Positions 1,599 to 11,667 of a stretch of 11,667 bases of DNA are shown here, piece by piece. Each line of letters begins with the position of its first letter. The stretch's first letter is position 1. The notes beneath the pieces are model-generated. The model was given only the letters and a program-made list of their open reading frames with translations, did not search any database and was not told the DNA's origin. Position numbers and translations under genes: made by a program. The stretch is from IMG/VR virus record IMGVR_UViG_2541047721_000002. One strand, written 5' to 3'. The stretch comes from a virus. Taxonomy: Duplodnaviria > Heunggongvirae > Uroviricota > Caudoviricetes.

Positions 1599-1739
1599 TT
1601 ACTGCTTACACTGTAAGAACGCCGCAAACTCCGCTCCCCAGAAACTCATCCGTATTTCACACAGCGAACCGTGCAGCATCCAGATGATGAGGATTGCCGT
1701 CACGCAGAATGTGATGGCCGTAAGCGATTTTTGCGACAT
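1599..1739 (-). CDS. Hok/Gef-family type I toxin (small membrane-depolarising peptide), 46 aa
   Basis: Not in the ORF track (too short). Minus-strand ATG at 1739 preceded by AAGGAG RBS; translation MSQKSLTAITFCVTAILIIWMLHGSLCEIRMSFWGAEFAAFLQCKQ; TAA at 1601-1599. Single N-terminal hydrophobic helix plus the Hok-family C-terminal signature SLCE(I/L)R…(E)xAAF(L/M)AC, closest in my memory to HokA-type peptides. Overlapped by a longer out-of-frame upstream ORF (mok-like) and followed by a terminator. Confidence 0.7.
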   Translation of the reverse strand: MSQKSLTAITFCVTAILIIWMLHGSLCEIRMSFWGAEFAAFLQCKQ

Positions 1740-1930: not shown

Positions 1931-2191
1931 TTAATTCTGAGATAAAGGCAAACTCATCTGATTGTTTCCCCTGTGTGAAGCTGGCAGCTCATGCCACGGG
2001 ATACCTTCTGAAGAGTGAACGCCGGAGGCGTGTTTTGATGTGAATTTATGGAAAGCTTCCAGTGTTGAGAAGCATACGCCGCATTCCAGATTGTTACACT
2101 GGTAATACTTTTGCCGCACGGTGTTTGAATCATTTTCCGGACGACTGGTGCGGATACGGGCAGATGCGCCACAAAGCGGACAACGGAACAT
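1931..2191 (-). CDS. ogr: Ogr/Delta-family zinc-finger late-gene transcriptional activator
   Basis: 86-aa ORF, ATG at 2191 with AAGGGAGG RBS 6 nt upstream; N-terminus MFRCPLCGASARIRTSR…YYQCNNLECGVCF has the C-x2-C…C-x4-C zinc-finger layout and closely resembles P2 Ogr / 186 B (MFHCPLC…ARTSR…HQCQN…C…F). Lies immediately downstream of D on the same strand, as in P2. Confidence 0.85.
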   Translation of the reverse strand: MFRCPLCGASARIRTSRPENDSNTVRQKYYQCNNLECGVCFSTLEAFHKFTSKHASGVHSSEGIPWHELPASHRGNNQMSLPLSQN

Positions 2192-2231: not shown

Positions 2232-3341
2232 TCACTCTGTTTCCGCTATCCATTCCGGGATTTTTGCCTCAAGCTCAAGCTGCGTGGTAAAACCGCTGTT
2301 ATCAATGGTGTGCTCGGCTTTTGCAATGATCCAGTCCTGATTATCAATCTCGCTTTTAAATCCTGTTACCGTGCCATGCATTTCGGGGTAGAGTTCTGCA
2401 CGTCCACGCGCCAGCGTGATGGAGAATGATGCGGCTCCGCGTTGTAGTTGCTGCCACTTTGCCGCCGCTGCGCGTCTTGCTGCCTGCTCGTTCTGATAAG
2501 TCTTGCGTAACACAAACACATTGCCTTCCGCGCCTTCCATATAATCACCTTCGCGGCTGCTGCTTTTCTCCTTTTTGGGTTTTGGCGGTTTACGGCGTTT
2601 CACGCTGACTTTTTTCTTTTTCCCGTAATTAAGATCAAGCCAGTAAGCGCGTACCCCCGTATACGCTTCGCGGTCAGCAATGCGGAACTGATGGCGATCG
2701 CCGCTGCTGCGTGTGATGGCAAACGATGGCAACGGCTGGCCCTGTGCGTTCACGCCACCGCCGGGCATGATGAATAACAGATTACCGCTTTTTACCGTGG
2801 TGATTGCGCCCAGCATTTCCGCCATGCGCGTAAGGAAGGACATGTCGCTTTCTTCGGTCTGGTCGGCGTGGTCGATTTCGATATCCATCAGCATTTCGCT
2901 GATTTGCGGTTTCAGACCATACCGATGAGCGATGGCGGATACCACACGCTCAACGGTCACATCATGCCAGGACACCTCACGTTTAACGTTAAATTCATCC
3001 CGAAAATCTGCGCTTCTGGCTGAAACAGTCAGCCTGTCCGGCGGTCCTTCGTGAGCGATTTCATCAACAATGTAAGTGCCTTTTTCTGTCAGCGGTTCTC
3101 CTTTCCAGCCAATGAGAACCGTCAGGCGCGCGCCCCGTGGCGGTAGCTGCAACTGACCATCCGCATCATCCAGCGTGATGGTGAGCTGGTCCGCGTCAAA
3201 TCCCCGGTTGTCGGTCAGTGACAGGCTCATCAGGCGCTCTGCCACGCCTGACAGCGTTTTACCCTCCGCGAGAATATCAAAATCCGGCATTTTCACGGGG
3301 TCTGTGCCCTGACTGAGCAATTGCATGGTGGTATCGGTCAT
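2232..3341 (-). CDS. D: P2 gpD-like tail protein (tail-completion / late control D family)
   Basis: Minus-strand frame with stop at 2232. Motifs typical of P2 gpD are present (…SLSLTDNRGFDADQLTITLDDADG…, …SARSADFR…REVSWHD…, …AYTGV…, …REGDYMEGAEGNVF…, …QLQRG…FSI…GR…, …GFK…IDNQDW…NSGFTT.LELE…). I place the start at ATG 3341 (MTDTTMQLL…) because an AGGGAGG RBS lies 5-11 nt upstream; the ORF-track extension to 3473 has no RBS. Confidence 0.85.
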   Translation of the reverse strand: MTDTTMQLLSQGTDPVKMPDFDILAEGKTLSGVAERLMSLSLTDNRGFDADQLTITLDDADGQLQLPPRGARLTVLIGWKGEPLTEKGTYIVDEIAHEGPPDRLTVSARSADFRDEFNVKREVSWHDVTVERVVSAIAHRYGLKPQISEMLMDIEIDHADQTEESDMSFLTRMAEMLGAITTVKSGNLLFIMPGGGVNAQGQPLPSFAITRSSGDRHQFRIADREAYTGVRAYWLDLNYGKKKKVSVKRRKPPKPKKEKSSSREGDYMEGAEGNVFVLRKTYQNEQAARRAAAAKWQQLQRGAASFSITLARGRAELYPEMHGTVTGFKSEIDNQDWIIAKAEHTIDNSGFTTQLELEAKIPEWIAETE

Positions 3342-3498
3342 CTGTTCCCTCCCTGTGCGGCATAGTCGCATGTGCGTGCGGAGGGGGTTACTGCTTTTTG
3401 TTGTCGCCGGGTCGGGAGAACGGCGCAGGGGTGAGATTACGCGCGTGGTGGGTGATGATTGTTGCCGAATCATTTAACGGATACAAGGGGCTGAAGCT
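3342..3498. promoter_or_regulatory. divergent intergenic region between D (minus) and FI (plus); expected site of late promoter(s)
   Basis: 157-bp non-coding gap between two divergent start codons, each with a good RBS. I could not find a canonical Ogr-type TGT-N12-ACA element by eye, so promoter positions are unassigned. Confidence 0.4.
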
Positions 3499-4683
3499 AT
3501 GAGTGAAACTCGTTTTCATGGTGCCCGTGTTACGGAAAGTACCGACCTGGTAACAGCGATTAATGATGTTGATTCCAGCGTTATCGGTATCGTGGCAACG
3601 GCGGATGATGCGGACGCGAAGCTGTTCCCGCTGAACAAGCCCACACTGCTGACCCGCGTCAATGACGTGCTGGGAAAATGCGGGACAACGGGGACGCTTT
3701 ATCGTGCGCTTAAGGCCATCGCAGACCAGGTGAGCACAAAGGTGATCGTCGTTCGCGTGGCTGAACACAAAGAAGAAAACGGAAAGACGCAGGATCAACT
3801 GGTTATCGGTGGTTCTGAATCTGACGGCAGCTATACGGGGATGTATGCGCTGCTTGTTGCAGAGCAGGATGAAAGCATCGGATACCGTCCGCGTATTCTG
3901 GCCGCGCCGGAGCTGGACACGGAGGCGGTGACAAAATCCCTGTGCGTGATTGCGGGTAAACTGCGCGCGTTTGTGTATGCCACATGTCATGGTTGTAACA
4001 CGATGGCTGAGGCGATTACCTACCGCCAGAAATTCAACGAACGTGAGGTGATGCTCTTATGGCCTGACTTCATCGCCTACAACCCGAAAAGTGGCAAAAA
4101 CGAAACGTTCCCCGCGCCTGCTTATGCGTGCGGCCTTCGTGCGTACATTGACCATGAGCAGGGCTGGCACAAATCGCTGTCCAACGTTCCGGTTAAAAAT
4201 GTGCTGGGGATGTCGAGGCATGTGTTCTGGTCGTTACAGGCCGAAGACAGTGATGCCAACAGCCTCAACAACAAAGAAATCACGACCATTATTCGTCGTA
4301 ACGGGTTCCGCTTCTGGGGCAACCGCACACCGGAAACGAACGCCTACATCTTTGAGGTGTATACCCGAACCGCACAGGTGCTGGCTGATTCAATTGCGGA
4401 AGCGCAGTTTGAAACCATCGACAGTCCACTGACACCTGCGAACGTGAAGGATGTTATCAGCGCCATCAGAGCAAAACTGGATTCGCTGGTTACTGTCGGG
4501 AAACTGATTGGTGCGGAGTGCTGGTATGACGTGGTGGATAACAGCACCACGGGTTTACGTCAGGGGCGTGTGCGTATTCGCTACAAATATACGCCCGTTC
4601 CTCCGCTGGAAGACATGGAGCTTTACCAGTCGTTTACTGATGAATTCTTTGGTCCCGCATTTGCGGTGCTGGGAGGTGCCTGA
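3499..4683 (+). CDS. FI: contractile tail sheath protein (P2 gpFI family)
   Basis: 394-aa ORF, ATG at 3499 with AAGGGG RBS. Blocks co-linear with P2 FI: …DADA.LFPLNKP.L…, …GTLY.AL.AIADQ…, …KLRAFVYA…, …YRQ.F..RE.M..WPDF…, …DHEQGWHK.LSNV…, …IRR.GFRFWGNRT…, …Y.RTAQV.AD…, …I.Y.YTPVPPLE…. Confidence 0.93.
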   Translation: MSETRFHGARVTESTDLVTAINDVDSSVIGIVATADDADAKLFPLNKPTLLTRVNDVLGKCGTTGTLYRALKAIADQVSTKVIVVRVAEHKEENGKTQDQLVIGGSESDGSYTGMYALLVAEQDESIGYRPRILAAPELDTEAVTKSLCVIAGKLRAFVYATCHGCNTMAEAITYRQKFNEREVMLLWPDFIAYNPKSGKNETFPAPAYACGLRAYIDHEQGWHKSLSNVPVKNVLGMSRHVFWSLQAEDSDANSLNNKEITTIIRRNGFRFWGNRTPETNAYIFEVYTRTAQVLADSIAEAQFETIDSPLTPANVKDVISAIRAKLDSLVTVGKLIGAECWYDVVDNSTTGLRQGRVRIRYKYTPVPPLEDMELYQSFTDEFFGPAFAVLGGA

Positions 4684-5195
4684 TGGCTGTACCAAAACAT
4701 CTTCGCTTTTTTACGTTGTTTGTGGATGGTGAAAACGAAGTGGGTAAAGTGACATCCGTCACGCCACCCAAACTGACGCGCAAAACCGACAGCTATCGTG
4801 GTGGTGGCATGATGGGGGCGGTAAGTATTGATCTCGGTCTGGACGACTCCGCGCTTGATGCGAGTTTTGTCATGGGGGGAGCTGTTCGTGCGCTGTTCCT
4901 TAAATATGGCGGCACGATTGACGGCACGCTGCTGCGTTTTGCGGGTGAATACTACACCGATGCAGAAAGCGATCTGTATGAAATCGAGATGCGCGGGCGT
5001 GTGACGGAAATTGATATGGGGGAGGCCAAACAGGGCGAAGCCACATCACACACTTACGCTGTCAAAAACACCTACTACAAGCTGAGCGTTAACGATCGCC
5101 CGCTGTGGGAAATCGACCTGTTGAACCACATCTACCGGAAGGACGGCAAGGACATTGTGCCTGACCGCATTCGTTCCGCGCTTGGGCTTGGCTGA
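4683..5195 (+). CDS. FII: tail tube protein (P2 gpFII family)
   Basis: 170-aa ORF whose ATG (4683-4685) overlaps the FI stop TGA (4681-4683) in a TGATG arrangement; size and position immediately after the sheath gene match P2 FII. Confidence 0.88.
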   Translation: MAVPKHLRFFTLFVDGENEVGKVTSVTPPKLTRKTDSYRGGGMMGAVSIDLGLDDSALDASFVMGGAVRALFLKYGGTIDGTLLRFAGEYYTDAESDLYEIEMRGRVTEIDMGEAKQGEATSHTYAVKNTYYKLSVNDRPLWEIDLLNHIYRKDGKDIVPDRIRSALGLG

Positions 5196-5250: not shown

Positions 5251-5625
5251 ATGAAAGATATCGATACTGAAACCCGGAATAACACCGTAGCGGATGATGT
5301 GACGTCAGGTGAGGATATGGCTGTCGAACGTGGTGTAAAACTTTCCCGGCCAATTGAGCGTGGTGCCGAAAAAATCACATATGTGGAGATCACCGGGGCT
5401 ATTGAACAGGCTGGATCCCTGCGTGGTCTGTCTCTGTCTGATGTGCTGAATCTGAAAGCGGATACCATGTTCACGCTGTTGCCTCGCGTGACCTCGCCAC
5501 GACTGGATGAAGTGATGATTAAAAAAATGTCGTCACGCGATTTTATTCAGTTGTGCGCTGTGGCTGTAAATTTTATGAGCGAGCCAGACTCTGGCGCGAA
5601 GAGCGTGCAGGAGACGGCAGCGTAA
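5251..5625 (+). CDS. E: tail assembly chaperone E (P2 gpE; lambda gpG analogue)
   Basis: 124-aa ORF, ATG at 5251 preceded by AAAAGGAGA RBS; sits between the tube gene and the tape measure gene, with an overlapping -1 frame ORF running to 5789 as expected for E/E'. Confidence 0.75.
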   Translation: MKDIDTETRNNTVADDVTSGEDMAVERGVKLSRPIERGAEKITYVEITGAIEQAGSLRGLSLSDVLNLKADTMFTLLPRVTSPRLDEVMIKKMSSRDFIQLCAVAVNFMSEPDSGAKSVQETAA

Positions 5626-5789
5626 TCACCCTGGTGTGCTTTGAGCACATCGAAGATCTGGTGGCGGATATTGCCGCCATTTTTAACTGGTCGCCCGCCG
5701 AAATCTTCATGATGACGCCCGGCGAAGTGGTTAGCTGGCGCGAGCGGGCGGCACTTCGCAGCGGGAATGCAGACAATGAAGACTCTTGA
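5523..5789 (+). CDS. E: E' extension frame, expressed as an E+E' fusion by -1 programmed ribosomal frameshift (P2 gpE+E'; lambda gpGT analogue)
   Basis: The -1 frame relative to E is open from 5523 to TGA at 5787-5789 and overlaps the T start, as in P2. Candidate slippery sites in the overlap: A AAT TTT at 5568-5574 (fits X_XXY_YYZ in the E frame) and the A7 run at 5521-5527. The downstream E' part (SVITLVCFEHIEDLVADIAAIFNWSPAEIFMMTPGEVVSWRERAALRSG) looks protein-like. Confidence 0.6.
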   Translation, partial: KNVVTRFYSVVRCGCKFYERARLWREERAGDGSVITLVCFEHIEDLVADIAAIFNWSPAEIFMMTPGEVVSWRERAALRSGNADNEDS

Positions 5790-8583
5790 TATCCGGGTCG
5801 CTTTCAGCGCCGTTGACAGGCTGACCCGGCCTGCCGAAAACGCCCGCCGCCTGATGGGGCAGTTTGGTGACTCCATCCAGCGAACGCAGGGGGCGATCAA
5901 AAATCTCGAGCGTCAGGCGCGTTCATTTGAGCGCGCCCGTGACGCTGTCAGTAAAGCGGATGCGGGCATCGTGAAAGCACGACGCCAGCTTAACGCCCTT
6001 AATCAGTTACAACGCACGGGTACAGTGCTCAGCGAAAAACAACAAAAGCTGATGCAGCAGTTAAGCACCCGGCTTGAACGCCTGAATGAATCGCGCACAC
6101 GGGAAATTCAGAAAATGCGGGAACTTGGCGGAGAGCTGAAACGCCACGGCATTTCCCTGACAGGCAGCGATAACACCATCCAGCAGGCCATCAGACGCAC
6201 CGAACAGTACAACAACCAGCTTGAACGCGAACGGCAGGCGCTTGCGCGTGTAACGCGGGCGCGTGAGCGGTATTCGCGCGCGCAGGAAACCGCGGGAAAA
6301 CTGAAAACAGGTGGTGCGCTGGCAATTGGTGCTGCAGCGGCTGGCGGCTATGCTGCCGGGCGTTTTTTGCAGCCTGCGATCGGGTTCGGCAAAGAGATGT
6401 CCCGCGTTCAGGCACTGACGCGAATCGACAAAAACAGCCCGCAGTTTAAGGCGCTGCGTGAGCAGGCGTTAAAACTTGGTTCTGAAACACAGTTTACTGC
6501 GAGTGATGCCGCCAGTGGGCAGAGCTTTCTGGCAATGGCTGGTTTTACTCCGCAGGCCATTCAGGCCGCATTGCCCGGTGTTCTTAATATGGCGCTGGCA
6601 GGTGGCGTCGAACTCGGCGAGACGGCTGATATAGGCTCCAATATCCTCACACAGTTCAACCTGACAGCCGATCAAATGGACCGGGTTGGCGATACGCTGA
6701 CAGCAGCATTCACCCGGACCAATACTGATTTACGCGCGCTGGGCGAAACCATGAAGTATACCGGTCCGGTTGCCGCAAAACTTGGTATCAGTCTTGAAGA
6801 AGCGGCGGCCATGGCCGGGATGCTTGCCAATAATGGTCTTCGCGGAAGCGATGCTGGTACGGCCATGCGCGCAAGTCTGTCCCGCCTTGCATCACCGCCA
6901 AAAGCTGCGGCTGATGCACTGAAAGAGCTGGGGGTGTCAGTTGCTGACGCCAGAGGCAAAATGCGCCCGATGGAGGATGTGCTGCTTGATCTCTATAAGG
7001 CGACACAAAAATACGGACAGGTGGACCAGGTTTCCTTCTTCAAGGACATCGCCGGAGAAGAGGCGTTCGTTGGTTTACAGACGCTTGTTGCGGCGGCTGG
7101 TTCAGGAGAGCTGCAAAAACTGACCAGAGAATTGCAGGGGGCAAGGGGAGAGGCCGATCGCGTTGCAAAAGTAATGGCCGATAATCTTGATGGGGACCTG
7201 AAAAATCTCGACAGCGCATGGGAAGGTCTTCGTATTCGCATCAGTGATCTGGTTGACGGTCCGCTGCGTTCTGTCACGCAGTGGCTCACGCGGGTGCTTG
7301 AAAAAATCACCTCGCTGGCGCAGGCCCATCCGGTACTGACGCGCCAGCTACTGATAGCAGGCGGTGCGTTGCTGGCAATGACTGCAACGATTGGCTCGTT
7401 GTCGCTGGTTATTGGGGTGCTTTACGGAAAGCTGGCCACCCTGCGTCTTGGTTTTGACATTCTTACCCGGTCAATGAATGTCGTCCGGGTGTTGCCTGCG
7501 CTGTGGGGAATGCTGACGGGTTCTGTTTCTTTGCTGGGAGGCGCTATCGGGGCGCTGTTCAGTCCGGTTGGATTGATTGCTGCTGCGTTTGTGGCTGCGG
7601 CGGTTCTCATCTGGAAATACTGGGAACCCATTAAGGCGTTTTATGCCGGGGTGTTCAACGGGATTATGGAAAGGCTGACCCCGTTGCGCGAAACCTTTGA
7701 ACGGTTTGGTCCTGTTTTTGACGCAATCGGAAGCGGGATCAGCCAGGTGTTTAACTGGTTTAAATCGCTGCTGTCACCGATGGAGTCCAGCAAGGAAACG
7801 CTGGATAAATGTACCAGTGCTGGCGAGATATTCGGTAACGTTCTTGGTGGCGCGTTACAGCTTGTTCTGACGCCTGCAAAAATGTTGCTGGATACGCTGG
7901 CGTGGATACTTGAAAAACTCGGTGTTCTTCCGGATGAAGCGGAAAGGGCGAGAAAGAAAATCGAAGACGTACAGCGTGCGGCCATTCTTCAGGACAAGGT
8001 TACCTTGCTTCAGGGGGACCTGGCGAAAATCAATCCGCCGAAGCCTGTGGAAAATGGCAATGGCACCGGAGGTGATAACCCCAAAGACAATAAACCGCTC
8101 ACAGACAGCAATACCGGGACGCTGCGCAGACTCAGCAAAATTGCTGATAACACAGGTAAGCTGGTTGAGGAGACGAAAAAACGCATTGGCCCCGGCGATA
8201 TTGTCTTTAAAAACCTGCCCCGAGCACTTGCTGTTCGTGGGGAGTGGCAGGAGCGGAAGATTGCGCAGGTCAGTAAGCCTGCCCCCGCAATTAATATCAC
8301 ACCCGTGGTCCCGGCTCCGCTGCCTCCGGCGCTGGTCCCTGTTGTTGCGGCCAGCTCCCGCCCGGTGGCGGAGGCCATACGATCTCCAGTGGCATCAGTT
8401 CCTGTAACTTCCCGTAACCGGGAGCCTGTTGCCTCCGGATTTGGTGGTGAAATTCATGTTCATCTGCATAACGTTGTTACGCAGAATCCCCGCGAACTGG
8501 CGAAACTGGTCGGTGAAATGGTCAGGGCAGAAATGGAACGGCGTGCCCGTGCCGGGCGTGGCAGTTTTTACGATAAAGATTGA
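5767..8583 (+). CDS. T: tail tape measure protein (P2 gpT family)
   Basis: 938-aa ORF, the largest in the cluster, directly after E/E'. It has an N-terminal coiled-coil region rich in Q/R/E/L, a central hydrophobic segment (~7320-7640) and a Pro/Val/Ala-rich C-terminus. Start could be ATG 5767 or ATG 5776. Confidence 0.9.
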   Translation: MQTMKTLDIRVAFSAVDRLTRPAENARRLMGQFGDSIQRTQGAIKNLERQARSFERARDAVSKADAGIVKARRQLNALNQLQRTGTVLSEKQQKLMQQLSTRLERLNESRTREIQKMRELGGELKRHGISLTGSDNTIQQAIRRTEQYNNQLERERQALARVTRARERYSRAQETAGKLKTGGALAIGAAAAGGYAAGRFLQPAIGFGKEMSRVQALTRIDKNSPQFKALREQALKLGSETQFTASDAASGQSFLAMAGFTPQAIQAALPGVLNMALAGGVELGETADIGSNILTQFNLTADQMDRVGDTLTAAFTRTNTDLRALGETMKYTGPVAAKLGISLEEAAAMAGMLANNGLRGSDAGTAMRASLSRLASPPKAAADALKELGVSVADARGKMRPMEDVLLDLYKATQKYGQVDQVSFFKDIAGEEAFVGLQTLVAAAGSGELQKLTRELQGARGEADRVAKVMADNLDGDLKNLDSAWEGLRIRISDLVDGPLRSVTQWLTRVLEKITSLAQAHPVLTRQLLIAGGALLAMTATIGSLSLVIGVLYGKLATLRLGFDILTRSMNVVRVLPALWGMLTGSVSLLGGAIGALFSPVGLIAAAFVAAAVLIWKYWEPIKAFYAGVFNGIMERLTPLRETFERFGPVFDAIGSGISQVFNWFKSLLSPMESSKETLDKCTSAGEIFGNVLGGALQLVLTPAKMLLDTLAWILEKLGVLPDEAERARKKIEDVQRAAILQDKVTLLQGDLAKINPPKPVENGNGTGGDNPKDNKPLTDSNTGTLRRLSKIADNTGKLVEETKKRIGPGDIVFKNLPRALAVRGEWQERKIAQVSKPAPAINITPVVPAPLPPALVPVVAASSRPVAEAIRSPVASVPVTSRNREPVASGFGGEIHVHLHNVVTQNPRELAKLVGEMVRAEMERRARAGRGSFYDKD

Positions 8584-8589
8584 GGAGTC

Positions 8590-9084
8590 ATGGCCATGAT
8601 GATGATCTATGGCATGTTTGTTTTTGAGCTGCGCACATTGCCGCATCAGCAGTTACAGCAAAACAAAAGCTGGCGGCATGTGAAAAATGAACGCGTTAAT
8701 CGTTCAGCAAGCTGGCAGTATATCGGCGCAGGTGATGATCGCATCGTGCTTTCCGGCGTGCTTTATCCTGAAATTACAGGTGGCGAAGTGTCGCTTTCGT
8801 TGCTGACCACGCAGGCATATACAGGACGCCCCTGGCCTCTGATTGATGGTGTCGGGCAGATTTACGGCATGTATGTACTGACTGAAACGAATACGACCCG
8901 TTCCGAGTTTGATCGCTACGGTAAGGCGAAAAAGATAGAATTTTCACTGACTCTTGAACGCTGTGATGAGGATTTGCGGGAGCGCCTGCAATCCTCATCG
9001 TTCAGTGATATGCTGTCCGGCTTCAAAGATAAGGTCACATCATCCCTTAACAGCGCGGCCAGCTCCGTTAAAGGGCTGTTTTGA
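8590..9084 (+). CDS. U: tail protein U (P2 gpU family)
   Basis: 164-aa ORF, ATG at 8590 with GAGGAG RBS, immediately after T. N-terminus (M)MMIYGMFVFELRTLP… and overall size match P2 gpU. Confidence 0.88.
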   Translation: MAMMMIYGMFVFELRTLPHQQLQQNKSWRHVKNERVNRSASWQYIGAGDDRIVLSGVLYPEITGGEVSLSLLTTQAYTGRPWPLIDGVGQIYGMYVLTETNTTRSEFDRYGKAKKIEFSLTLERCDEDLRERLQSSSFSDMLSGFKDKVTSSLNSAASSVKGLF

Positions 9085-9092
9085 TTAACGCA

Positions 9093-9120
9093 AAACCGCT
9101 AATGGTCAGATTAGCGGTTT
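9093..9120. terminator. bidirectional hairpin between convergent U and invertase genes
   Basis: AAACCGCTAAT-ggtcag-ATTAGCGGTTT 11-bp stem followed by TCATTTTCC; the invertase stop codon (9111-9113) lies inside the stem. Confidence 0.5.
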
Positions 9121-9710
9121 TCATTTTCCTGAGTCTGCCTGGTTGTTTCTTCAGCCTGTATATCGCCTACAGGGTGATAACGATAAATCGTCGATATGCC
9201 GATGTCGTAAATGATCGCCAGTTGTTTCCTGTCATGACCGTTTTTAATCAGCCTCGCTATTTGCTCGTGTTGTTCTTTTGTCAACTTCGGGCGACGTCCG
9301 CCAATGCGTCCTTGTGCGCGTGCTGCTGCCAGCCCGGCCAGTGTACGCTCTACAATTAATTCACGTTCCATTTCGGCTAAAGCCCCCATGACGTGAAAAA
9401 AGAAACGCCCCATGGGTGTTGATGTGTCAATGCTGTCCGTCAGACTACGGAAATTAACACCTTTTTCCCGCAATTCCTCAATAAGCGTGATCAGGTGTTT
9501 CATACTTCTGCCCAGTCTGTCCAGCTTCCAGACAACCAGCGTATCTCCTTCTGATAGCGTTCTGAGCAGTTTTTTCAATCCCGGTCTGGTTGATTTCGTT
9601 CCGCTGATTTTATCTTCAAAAATCAGTTCACATCCTGCGCAGTTCAGTGCATTGCGTTGTAAATCCGTGTTCTGGTCGTTTGTTGACACACGAATATAGC
9701 CAATTTGCAT
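9111..9710 (-). CDS. serine DNA invertase, Gin/Pin/Hin/Cin family
   Basis: Minus-strand ORF. I place the start at ATG 9710 (MQIGYIRVSTNDQNTDLQRNAL…), which gives ~199 aa. The N-terminus and catalytic region (…GDTLVVWKLDRLGRSMKHLI…FRSLTDSIDTS.PMGRFFFHVMGALAEMERELI.ERT.AGLAAAR..GRIGGR.PKLT…) are nearly identical in pattern to E. coli Pin and Mu Gin, including the active-site serine in YIRVST. A C-terminal helix-turn-helix region follows. Confidence 0.93.
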   Translation of the reverse strand: MQIGYIRVSTNDQNTDLQRNALNCAGCELIFEDKISGTKSTRPGLKKLLRTLSEGDTLVVWKLDRLGRSMKHLITLIEELREKGVNFRSLTDSIDTSTPMGRFFFHVMGALAEMERELIVERTLAGLAAARAQGRIGGRRPKLTKEQHEQIARLIKNGHDRKQLAIIYDIGISTIYRYHPVGDIQAEETTRQTQENENR

Positions 9711-9764
9711 AAAAAACATCCTCTTTGTTTCGTGAAAAATACAGAGTTGGTATAGGTAGGGATA

Positions 9765-9790
9765 AAAACGAAAACGTTGGTTTAGGAGAA
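9765..9790. other. putative left crossover site of the invertible segment (gix/hix/pix-like)
   Basis: AAAACGAAAACG-TT-GGTTTAGGAGAA. The inner half-site in complement reads TTCTCCTAAACC, close to the half-site of known Gin/Hin sites (TTCCTGTAAACC / TTATCAAAAACC) as I remember them. The outer half is degenerate. The core dinucleotide falls at the V-G codons before the conserved LGEG motif. Confidence 0.45.
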
Positions 9791-10138
9791 GGCTCGGCGC
9801 TACCCGTTGGTGTGCCTGTTCCGTGGCCCACCGCCACACCGCCAGCAGGCTGGTTAAAGTGCGACGGGCGCGCCTTTACAAAAGAACAATATCCTGTTCT
9901 GGCCAGAGCCTACCCGACCCTCCGTCTTCCCGATTTACGCGGTGAGTTTATCCGTGGATGGGACGACGGGCGCAAAGTTGATACAGGACGTAAGTTGCTG
10001 TCCGCACAAGGGGCAACTATGTTATCCGCTTTTGTTGTTGATTATTCCAAACAGGTCACTACGCTAGGCTCGAGGAAAGTCGGCATGGGAGACACTATAG
10101 CAGATTACCAACCAGACGTTAGTGATGGCAACTTTTAG
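9776..10138 (+). CDS. silent alternative tail-fibre C-terminal cassette (Sv'-like), promoterless in this orientation
   Basis: Open frame …VGLGEGSALPVGVPVPWPTATPPAGWLKCDGRAFTKEQYPVLARAYPTLRLPDLRGEFIRGWDDGRKVDTGRKLLSAQG…DGNF*. The first ~70 aa are near-identical to the expressed cassette on the opposite strand and include the tail-fibre collar-type PDLRG…RGWD motif. There is no ATG or RBS; the frame begins at the crossover site. Confidence 0.6.
   Translation, partial: VGLGEGSALPVGVPVPWPTATPPAGWLKCDGRAFTKEQYPVLARAYPTLRLPDLRGEFIRGWDDGRKVDTGRKLLSAQGATMLSAFVVDYSKQVTTLGSRKVGMGDTIADYQPDVSDGNF
9818..9965. repeat. left copy of ~148-bp near-identical inverted repeat inside the invertible segment
   Basis: By manual reverse-complement alignment, 9818-9965 matches the complement of 11193-11340 with only a few mismatches, whereas flanking coding sequence drops to roughly 80% identity with synonymous differences. 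Confidence 0.7.
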
Positions 10139-10863
10139 ATACTTGATGCGTCCTCATTCGGCGCTCCAAGCTTAGCAATGTGGGATAATGTATCAGAGGG
10201 CACCCTCCAGATCGCAATTAAAAGTAGCTTTACGACGGCTAGCTATGGCTCAACCGGCAGGATTGAATGTAATTTCAGGCTAACTGATTTCTAATGAGTA
10301 GCACAGCTCTACTGCGTTCAGACCGTATATCTAATCTAGCAGGCGGTATCATTTTGTAGCTTCTTGACGTGGAAGCCCGGGAATAGACCTCAGTTTCTGT
10401 TTGATATGACGGCCTGACGCTGTGGCCTGTGTCACCTTTTGGTGGCGTTGCACTCTCGCAACCTCCATTGCGGCGCTTCGTTTCCGGTACTGATAGGTTG
10501 CCCGGGTCTGAGCGTTCCACTTATCACAGCGGCTAGATGGTTTTCATCTGGTAGAGTGGGACGGGCAATCAGCTTATCCGGCAGGGAGATTGGGGTTAGC
10601 ACTCTCCCAGAAAAATGCCGGCCAGGCGCGGGGATCAGTGACATGCTCACGCCTGTTTAACGGGTCCGGACGGCAAGCCACGTGACGCAAAGTAGCTTCC
10701 CACACTGCAACGCCGGCCGAGGGTGACACAGTAGCTGCCGCAAGTGGAACTTACCACCCTGAGGATGAGTTGTATTCCCAGTCTTACACCACATGGTGCG
10801 ATAAAATTAAATCGCGCGCTACAGTATAGCTACCAGTTTCATGCAGAACATATCTGCTAGTCA
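10139..10863. other. ~725-bp ORF-free core of the invertible segment; function unknown
   Basis: No ORF over 81 aa in any frame, and those present are low-complexity with no RBS. It lies where tail-fibre assembly chaperone genes sit in Mu G, P1 C and e14 P segments. Contains at least 4 CTAG tetranucleotides (10239, 10336, 10533, 10857), a motif normally scarce in enterobacterial DNA. Confidence 0.5.
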
Positions 10864-11667
10864 CTAGACATCACTTAGCCTGTAGTACCGTTCAAACTTA
10901 CGGGTTGAACGGGTTCTCCCCGCCGTCAAGCTATTTTTGATTGCGGTAATAAGAGGGCCAGGCATAACATTGTCCGACATTTCAAAGCTTTGTTCGCCTA
11001 AAGATGTTCCATCAGGTATTCTCTTTCTGCCCTCACTAACGCCCATTTTGGTATAGGCTTTAGTGTCACCAAATCCGAATTGCGCAGAGCCGCCCGTACT
11101 GTCATCGCTGTAATAATCCAGCTCAGCTCCGCTTACGATCGTCCCCTCTTGAAATGAAAGTACCGTACGCCCGGTATCAACCTTGCGACCACCGTCCCAT
11201 CCACGGATAAACTCACCGCGCAAATCGGGAAGACGGAGGGTCGGGTAGACTCTGGCCAGAACAGGATATTGTTCTTTGGTGAACGTAGCTCCGTTGCACT
11301 GTAACCAGCCTGCTGGCGGTGTGGCAGTGGGCCACGGAACAGGTACACCAACAGGCAATGCAGAGCCTTCCCCCAAACCAAGGTAATTGAGGACATCTTT
11401 TATACTGCCCTTAGCGATAATAGCGCGACCAATAGCTGTAAGGGTTGCCAGCGCTGCGCGGTCTGCTCCGGTAAAATAAGGCAACCGATCTGCTGCAGTG
11501 GCAAGTCCTGCCAGAGCAGTGAGCGTGGCATCTGCCGGTTGTTTTCCGTTTGCCAGATCGTATGCAGCCTTGACCGCTTTCGGTGTGGCGGCCAGTATTT
11601 CAGACGTGCTGTTGGTGGCGCTACTGAGTTGAACAAGGCCTTTTCGTGCCGTAGTCGCATCCTGAGC
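10864..11667 (-). CDS. tail fibre protein, 3' portion (expressed orientation; 5' part lies beyond the right window edge)
   Basis: I translated the minus-strand frame by hand from 11667 down to TAG at 10866-10864 and it is open throughout: …SSATNSTSEILAATPKAVKAAYDLANGKQPADATLTALAGLATAADRLPYFTGADRAALATLTAIGRAIIAKGSIKDVLNYLGLGEGSALPVGVPVPWPTATPPAGWLQCNGATFTKEQYPVLARVYPTLRLPDLRGEFIRGWDGGRKVDTGR…YRLSDV*. The ORF-track start at 11484 is a TTG inside this frame, not the true start. Contains the collar-type motif shared by Mu S, P1 S and e14 StfE-type fibres. Confidence 0.85.
   Translation of the reverse strand, partial: AQDATTARKGLVQLSSATNSTSEILAATPKAVKAAYDLANGKQPADATLTALAGLATAADRLPYFTGADRAALATLTAIGRAIIAKGSIKDVLNYLGLGEGSALPVGVPVPWPTATPPAGWLQCNGATFTKEQYPVLARVYPTLRLPDLRGEFIRGWDGGRKVDTGRTVLSFQEGTIVSGAELDYYSDDSTGGSAQFGFGDTKAYTKMGVSEGRKRIPDGTSLGEQSFEMSDNVMPGPLITAIKNSLTAGRTRSTRKFERYYRLSDV
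11193..11340. repeat. right copy of ~148-bp near-identical inverted repeat
   Basis: Reverse complement of 11193-11340 aligns with 9818-9965, e.g. ACCAAAGAACAATATCCTGTTCTGGCCAGAGTCTACCCGACCCTCCGTCTTCCCGATTT versus ACAAAAGAACAATATCCTGTTCTGGCCAGAGCCTACCCGACCCTCCGTCTTCCCGATTT. Confidence 0.7.
11368..11393. other. putative right crossover site of the invertible segment (gix/hix/pix-like)
   Basis: TTCCCCCAAACC-AA-GGTAATTGAGGA. The inner half-site TTCCCCCAAACC is in inverted orientation to the left site. The core falls at the L-G codons (CTT GGT) before LGEG in the expressed fibre, in the same codon phase as the left site, so inversion would give an in-frame fusion. Confidence 0.45.

Follow-up and report, generated by a model that had tools for sequence, protein, structure and literature searches.

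Mixing of two orientations in the interior of an invertible tail-fibre segment: a probable consensus artefact in a draft assembly

Invertible tail-fibre segments have been described as Mu G (invertase Gin), P1 C (Cin), e14 P (Pin), the p15B Min system and the EC958 segments Phi1, Phi2 and Phi4. These segments share an adjacent serine invertase and inverted 26-bp consensus sites, alternative collar-domain cassettes in frame with a constant fibre N-terminus, and an assembly gene of the Caudo_TAP family inside the segment, and both orientations are found in nature. In Mu, P1 and the mirror-image EC958 loci, there is one assembly gene (tfa) for each cassette. Both orientations of a prophage tail-fibre segment were present in the sequenced EC958 culture, about 50% of PacBio reads showing the alternative orientation for segments of this type; clusters of apparent substitutions and indels, together with spurious contigs, were at first taken for assembly errors in that genome (PMC4134206).

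The DNA analysed here, a stretch of 11,667 bp that is called the window below, carries a locus with the same organization. The original prediction concerned the 725 bp between the stop codons of the two cassettes (10139-10863). The segment was described as chaperone-less, with unusually short cassettes and a compositionally odd core free of ORFs, and four causes were suggested: heavily decayed chaperone genes, a structured non-coding RNA, recently acquired foreign DNA or a sequence artefact. The fourth suggestion was borne out, because the sequence was found to be a base-by-base mixture with its own reverse complement. It was concluded, with a probability of roughly 0.96, that positions 10018-11149 exist in no cell and that a draft assembly of short reads produced them as a consensus artefact at an invertase-flipped tail-fibre segment.

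Real parts of the segment and its intact relatives

The invertase and the parts of the segment, in window coordinates, were as follows.

9111-9710, minus strand: DNA invertase of 199 aa (Cin/Pin/Hin-type serine recombinase); a real gene, intact in its ORF translation
9765-9790, plus strand: left 26-bp crossover site, AAAACGAAAACG TT GGTTTAGGAGAA, with the core TT at 9777-9778; real
9776-10017, plus strand: left inverted-repeat arm, the 5' part (collar domain) of the silent cassette A; clean
10018-11149, no strand: mosaic zone, each base forward (F) or in-place reverse-complement (R), containing the whole of 10139-10863
10250-10864, minus strand: ghost of the inverted tfa, sharing its DNA with the next feature
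10294-10908, plus strand: ghost of tfa in the forward orientation, in the place of the intact 204-aa U15A gene
11150-11382, minus strand: right inverted-repeat arm, the collar-domain 5' part of the cassette now fused to the fibre gene; clean
11368-11393: right 26-bp crossover site, reading TCCTCAATTACC TT GGTTTGGGGGAA on the minus strand, with the core AA at 11380-11381 on the plus strand; real
11383-11667, minus strand: constant part of the tail-fibre gene (Phage_fiber_2 repeats), cut by the end of the window

The exact invertase protein was present in at least 1000 public contigs, where it was named recombinase or e14 DNA-invertase. The identical gene of the source record matched Pfam Resolvase and HTH_7, and its counterpart in E. 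coli U15A is annotated as a "recombinase family protein". The left crossover site was the best AAACC-NN-GGTTT-like match in the window. The cores of the two sites mirror each other (9777 + 11381 = 21158), and the sites are inverted in orientation with a matching central dinucleotide. In type, both agree with the sites of EC958 Phi2 and with the consensus of Mu/P1/e14/p15B (PMC4134206, Table 3), and the left half of the right site is identical to the 5' site of EC958 Phi2 (PMC4134206).

The repeat arms, of about 220 bp, are 88% identical (9777-9992 versus 11384-11166). The left arm was identical to U15A in the same orientation and matched Pfam Collar (E=1.6e-16); Pfam Collar was also found in the minus-strand translation of the right arm. 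Collar-domain cassettes are present on both strands; their clean sequence in the window is limited to the 5' parts. Pfam Phage_fiber_2 was matched (E=3.8e-19) by the constant part of the fibre gene. Its last 143 bp (11525-11667) match several copies of the Phage_fiber_2 repeat, spaced by 132 bp, in U15A; therefore, the draft does not resolve this repeat array.

The true content of the locus was apparent from intact relatives. The span of U15A equivalent to 9000-11667 is 2668 bp long, the same length as in the window. The best complete E. coli genomes also had exactly this length across the span, of which only about 65% was aligned. In U15A, the interval contains the 3' part of cassette A, an intact tfa and the end of cassette B. 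Cassette A comprises 172 aa counted from the crossover site and ends in RPRSIALNYIVRAV and a stop codon. Cassette B, which is convergent, ends in RPRNIAFNYIVRAA and a stop codon six bases past tfa. The full-length cassettes of U15A end in NYIVRAV and NYIVRAA, each followed by a stop codon. The tfa gene is an intact 204-aa assembly gene (Pfam Caudo_TAP, E=5.9e-28) and thus a clear member of PF02413, the family of lambda Tfa, P2 G and Mu U; no ORF of the window encodes a member, and only a ghost of one is detectable there. When mapped from U15A, the true stops of the cassettes fall at window positions 10292-10294 and 10915-10917, and the tfa CDS (2795-3409 in L001) falls at 10294-10908.

Therefore, the view that the segment lacks a chaperone gene and has unusually short cassettes was contradicted by the U15A interval, with its full-length cassettes and intact Caudo_TAP gene. 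The suggested comparison with homologous prophages gave the same answer, since the intact relatives do carry tfa at this position. However, the U15A locus (2277-3416) has one tfa for two cassettes, cassette B having none downstream, and in other strains (L003 and L004) three cassettes share the same single tfa. The Mu S-U/S'-U' pattern, in which tfa lies downstream of each variable cassette, was not seen in the intact relatives, which differ in this respect from Mu, P1 and the mirror-image EC958 loci. A single tfa for several cassettes is a real property of this locus family and not a total absence of the gene.

Between U13A and U15A, everything from one crossover site to the other was cleanly inverted, with 99.4% identity; U13A represents the true inverted state, with tfa on the minus strand. 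The fibre CDS of U13A (L002 3366-3580) is annotated to stop at 3580, short of the tfa start at 3365, and the U13A locus is 1 bp shorter than that of U15A, so a sequencing error or a frameshift may be present in this record. In run ERR4036490, an independent short-read contig (Logan) that encodes an identical tape-measure protein ends at the equivalent of window position 9783; the first difference between the repeat arms past the crossover core lies at the next base. This break at the crossover core suggests that both orientations were present in the sample. The adjacent invertase, the inverted 26-bp sites, the alternative opposed cassettes and the occurrence of both orientations place the locus in the Cin/Gin/Pin/Hin type. 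Beneath the artefact lies a tail-fibre switch of the known Cin/Pin type, which inverts in nature and whose chaperone gene is ordinary.

Base-by-base composition of the interior

Each position was classed by the U15A base that it matched, as F in the direct register or as R when it matched the complement in the mirrored register. In the latter, window position x is paired with 21158 - x (13659 in U15A L001 coordinates), and the centre is at 10579. Of the 1173 positions in 9993-11165, 1172 carried the F or R base of U15A, and there were no indels. The 870 informative sites in this range, at which F and R differed and one of them was matched, were divided almost evenly between 437 F and 433 R. 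The picks formed 445 runs, compared with 436 expected under independence, and neither autocorrelation among the picks nor correlation between mirrored positions was detected. There was a mild preference for T, which was chosen 240 times and passed over 184 times (89:58 over G, 72:55 over C and 79:71 over A); the other base pairs were balanced.

R picks were confined to 10018-11149. The forward base was found at every informative site of both the left and the right arm, and the sequence remained purely F over 16-25 nt of adjoining unique sequence. No secondary crossover sites were found at the edges of the mosaic, 10018 and 11149.

The same mixture was evident from whole-region comparisons. Without gaps, window positions 10000-11150 were about 60% identical to U15A directly and about 63% identical in a single mirrored register, whereas every other register gave about 25-30%. 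A test that needs no reference led to a similar result: the zone was 61.5% self-reverse-complementary about 10579, compared with 24.8% (sd 2.0) in approximately 800 other registers and with 24.8% when genuine U15A sequence was examined in that register. For a 50:50 mixture, about 63% would be expected. Apart from one position, the bases are derivable from the two orientations, the length is that of the native interval and the record is a draft, as in an artefact of superimposed orientations. No process of mutation or recombination selects, at each base, either the nucleotide itself or the complement of the one at its mirror position, and the zone is therefore a computational chimera of both orientations.

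Three particular ways of producing such a zone were considered and rejected. In-place inversion of the non-matching block only (register 13698) gave about 25% identity. A deterministic tie-break, for example by alphabetical order of the bases, did not agree with picks that were balanced for each base pair apart from the mild preference for T. Path-based consensus switching only at shared bases did not agree with the alternation of F and R in runs without a shared base.

The oddity of 10139-10863 was thus confirmed, but its extent was not, since the real zone is wider and covers 10018-11149. That this core has no credible ORF was also confirmed. Stop density was random-like in all six frames, the longest ORFs were of 45-81 aa, and a Pfam search with the three longest ORFs of the core gave no match. 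The cassette ORF on the plus strand of the window ends at 10138, and the fibre ORF on the minus strand ends at 10864. Both of these stops consist of mixed picks (R,F,R at 10136-10138 and F,R,R at 10864-10866), and the second coincides with the position of the cassette A stop in the inverted state. Because the anomalous zone includes the 3' parts of both cassettes, the stops that define 10139-10863 are themselves products of the anomaly.

The tetranucleotide CTAG had been reported at 10064, 10239, 10336, 10533, 10857 and 10864 and had not been seen in serS or the tail operon. All six positions were exact, and there was no other CTAG in the whole 11,667-bp window. With four copies in 725 bp and two in the remaining 10,942 bp, the clustering greatly exceeds what chance would give in E. 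coli-like DNA. No CTAG occurs in the genuine U15A zone or in the whole 5.7-kb U15A locus. However, 5000 simulated F/R mosaics of U15A contained 3.9 CTAG (sd 1.9), and the six observed are not exceptional among them (P(>=6)=0.18). Therefore, the CTAG anomaly is a by-product of mixing. The composition, the excess of CTAG and the loss of ORFs all follow from mixing.

Origin of the mosaic and alternative explanations

The window corresponds to scaffold KE699334.1 of the NCBI draft GCA_000456865.1, a scaffold-level assembly, with 0 mismatches over 9892 compared bp, the mosaic included. A scaffold gap of 389 N (9893-10281 of the source record) follows directly after the last base of the window, 518 bp from the mosaic, and falls inside the fibre repeat region of the tail-fibre gene.

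The real segment, lying between the sites at 9765-9790 and 11368-11393, contains two alternative C-terminal fibre cassettes and a single tail-fibre assembly gene. At each position of its interior, the assembler wrote the F or R base with equal probability and regardless of the neighbouring positions. This mixing destroyed the reading frames, created the chimeric stops at 10136-10138 and 10864-10866, yielded CTAG at the frequency of random sequence and turned the zone into a 61% imperfect palindrome. The artefact probably arose as follows. Interior reads could presumably be placed in either orientation in exact register, either because the culture was mixed or because of the inverted repeats that bound the segment. 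If two bases with equal support were then decided column by column, the picks would be independent and 50:50. Resolution would have been limited to positions no farther from the unique flanks than roughly the length of a read or fragment. The clean margins extend inward by 240 nt from one crossover core and by 231 nt from the other, which is about the length of a short read or a merged fragment; this size suggests that only positions reached by flank-anchored reads were resolved.

Three points do not fit this account readily. A mixed population should also mix the approximately 26 differing sites of each arm, and yet all of them carry the F base. Flank-anchored reads would explain the unmixed arms, which are the main loose end of the account. 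In addition, gapless and independent picking of single bases is unusual for a graph- or path-based consensus. The mild preference for T among the picks also stands against the account.

In EC958, a clean contig of its own was obtained for the alternative orientation (PMC4134206), whereas in the window the two orientations were merged into one chimera of the same length. No description of base-by-base merging of two orientations was found in a limited literature search. The mosaic, of which GGTGGCGTTGCACTCTCGCAACCTCCATTGCGG is an example 33-mer, was absent from 5426 complete E. coli genomes searched by BLAST. A BLAST search with the core in distant mode against the same 5426 genomes returned one weak match of 79 bp to the tfa gene, and a search against phage records returned two weak matches of about 66% identity. 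An exact 33-mer from the core was not found in viral, genome and metagenome contig collections, and exact look-up of the chimeric ORFs in a collection of 15 billion proteins found none on record.

The independent coin-flip form of the mosaic and its sharp edges look computational, and this would also be expected if the mosaic had been introduced after deposition and not by the assembly pipeline of the depositors. This is very unlikely, since the stored copy of KE699334.1 is identical over the 9892 bases and its own gene calls already end exactly at 10138 and 10864.

Heavy decay of one or two tail-fibre assembly genes in a degenerating prophage is less probable still. The translated search that had been proposed did recover the chaperone, but in a form unlike that of a pseudogene. 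With the Tfa protein of U15A as the query, tblastn aligned aa 1-202 to 10294-10899 on the plus strand (30.9% identity, E=3.5e-15) and aa 6-197 to 10849-10274 on the minus strand (38.5% identity, E=1e-28). Both alignments run the full length without a frameshift on the two strands of the same DNA. The similarity is a double ghost of the gene and not a pseudogene. The prophage is indeed a remnant in which some genes are damaged in relatives (gpD, for example, is truncated in U15A). However, decay would leave indels and lineage-specific substitutions, and there are no indels over 1132 bp; it would also leave similarity on one strand, and the similarity is equal on both (about 60% each). Moreover, 99.9% of the bases are drawn from the two orientations of a contemporary intact locus to which the flanks are identical, and mutation cannot restrict its outcome to the original base or the complement of the mirrored one.

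A structured non-coding RNA, or a long DNA hairpin that regulates inversion, was judged to be just as improbable as gene decay. When folded, the central 299 nt form a long-range hairpin with its centre at 10579 (z = -2.9), and the whole zone is 61% self-complementary. This hairpin score is attributable to the mosaic palindrome: the self-complementarity is the arithmetic result of mixing, for which about 63% was predicted, and in the genuine sequence it is only 24.8%. An Rfam scan of the whole window at the gathering threshold gave no match, and no related sequence that could show covariation was found in E. coli, phage or viral, genome and metagenome contig collections. Thus, the fold and covariance-model checks that had been proposed did not support an RNA.

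The least probable explanation, replacement of the chaperone genes by recently acquired foreign DNA, is suggested by CTAG frequency and composition resembling random or non-enterobacterial DNA and by the lack of a close match in E. coli, phage or contig collections, but it is virtually incompatible with an interval of exactly native length that is fully derivable from native sequence and whose CTAG excess is reproduced by simulated native mosaics.

Thus, 1.1 kb of a draft record in the public databases is sequence without any real counterpart. The mosaic mimics an ORF-free "non-coding" island, a foreign-looking CTAG-rich composition, truncated "novel" cassettes and a hairpin with a significant z. 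The biological interest of the zone is low, and its value is a lesson in data quality, since gene callers have already made chimeric proteins from it: the stored gene calls include chimeric products of 108 aa and 267 aa. The mirror-identity test is reference-free and could be used to screen other drafts for similar corruption. Tentatively, zones of this kind (flanked by inverted repeats, unchanged in length and about 60% self-reverse-complementary) might be a systematic by-product of one pipeline at any segment that is flipping actively or has inverted repeats on both sides, although this is rather doubtful. If it were so, a mirror-identity scan of the many drafts from that pipeline would flag corrupted records; active invertons could be mapped and the true sequence recovered at the same time. 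As a separate and equally speculative suggestion, given the single Tfa for two or three cassettes in the real locus, some fibre variants might fold without a cognate chaperone or share one.

Surrounding prophage genes

The remainder of the window consists of serS and, downstream of it, a P2-like prophage tail module.

1-1293: serS, at the start of the window
1599-1739, minus strand: Hok/Gef-family toxin ORF of 46 aa (U15A annotation)
1931-2191, minus strand: ogr/delta zinc-finger gene (U15A annotation)
2232-3473, minus strand: gpD (late control D, VgrG-like), a single ORF of 413 aa
3499-4683: sheath
4683-5195: tube
5251-5789, plus strand: gpE (124 aa), followed by a 51-aa GpE-family ORF
5767-8583: tape-measure ORF, annotated start at 5776
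8590-9084: gpU

The first 9 kb was 99.3% identical to E. coli U15A. The 61 differences in this part look like ordinary strain variation, and the differences between the window and U15A were concentrated at 1644-1826. The hok/gef and ogr genes are placed between serS and the tail genes of the prophage; no Sok-like RNA was found at the Rfam gathering score in the whole-window scan. The stored gene call for gpD in the source record is of 369 aa. In U15A, the gpD annotation consists of a shorter CDS (2234-3034) and, after it, a partial hypothetical; relative to U15A, the window has a 2-bp indel at about 2217, just outside its gpD ORF. The layout of gpE and the 51-aa ORF, which overlaps the start of the tape-measure gene, is the same as that of the programmed frameshift pair E/E+E' of P2.
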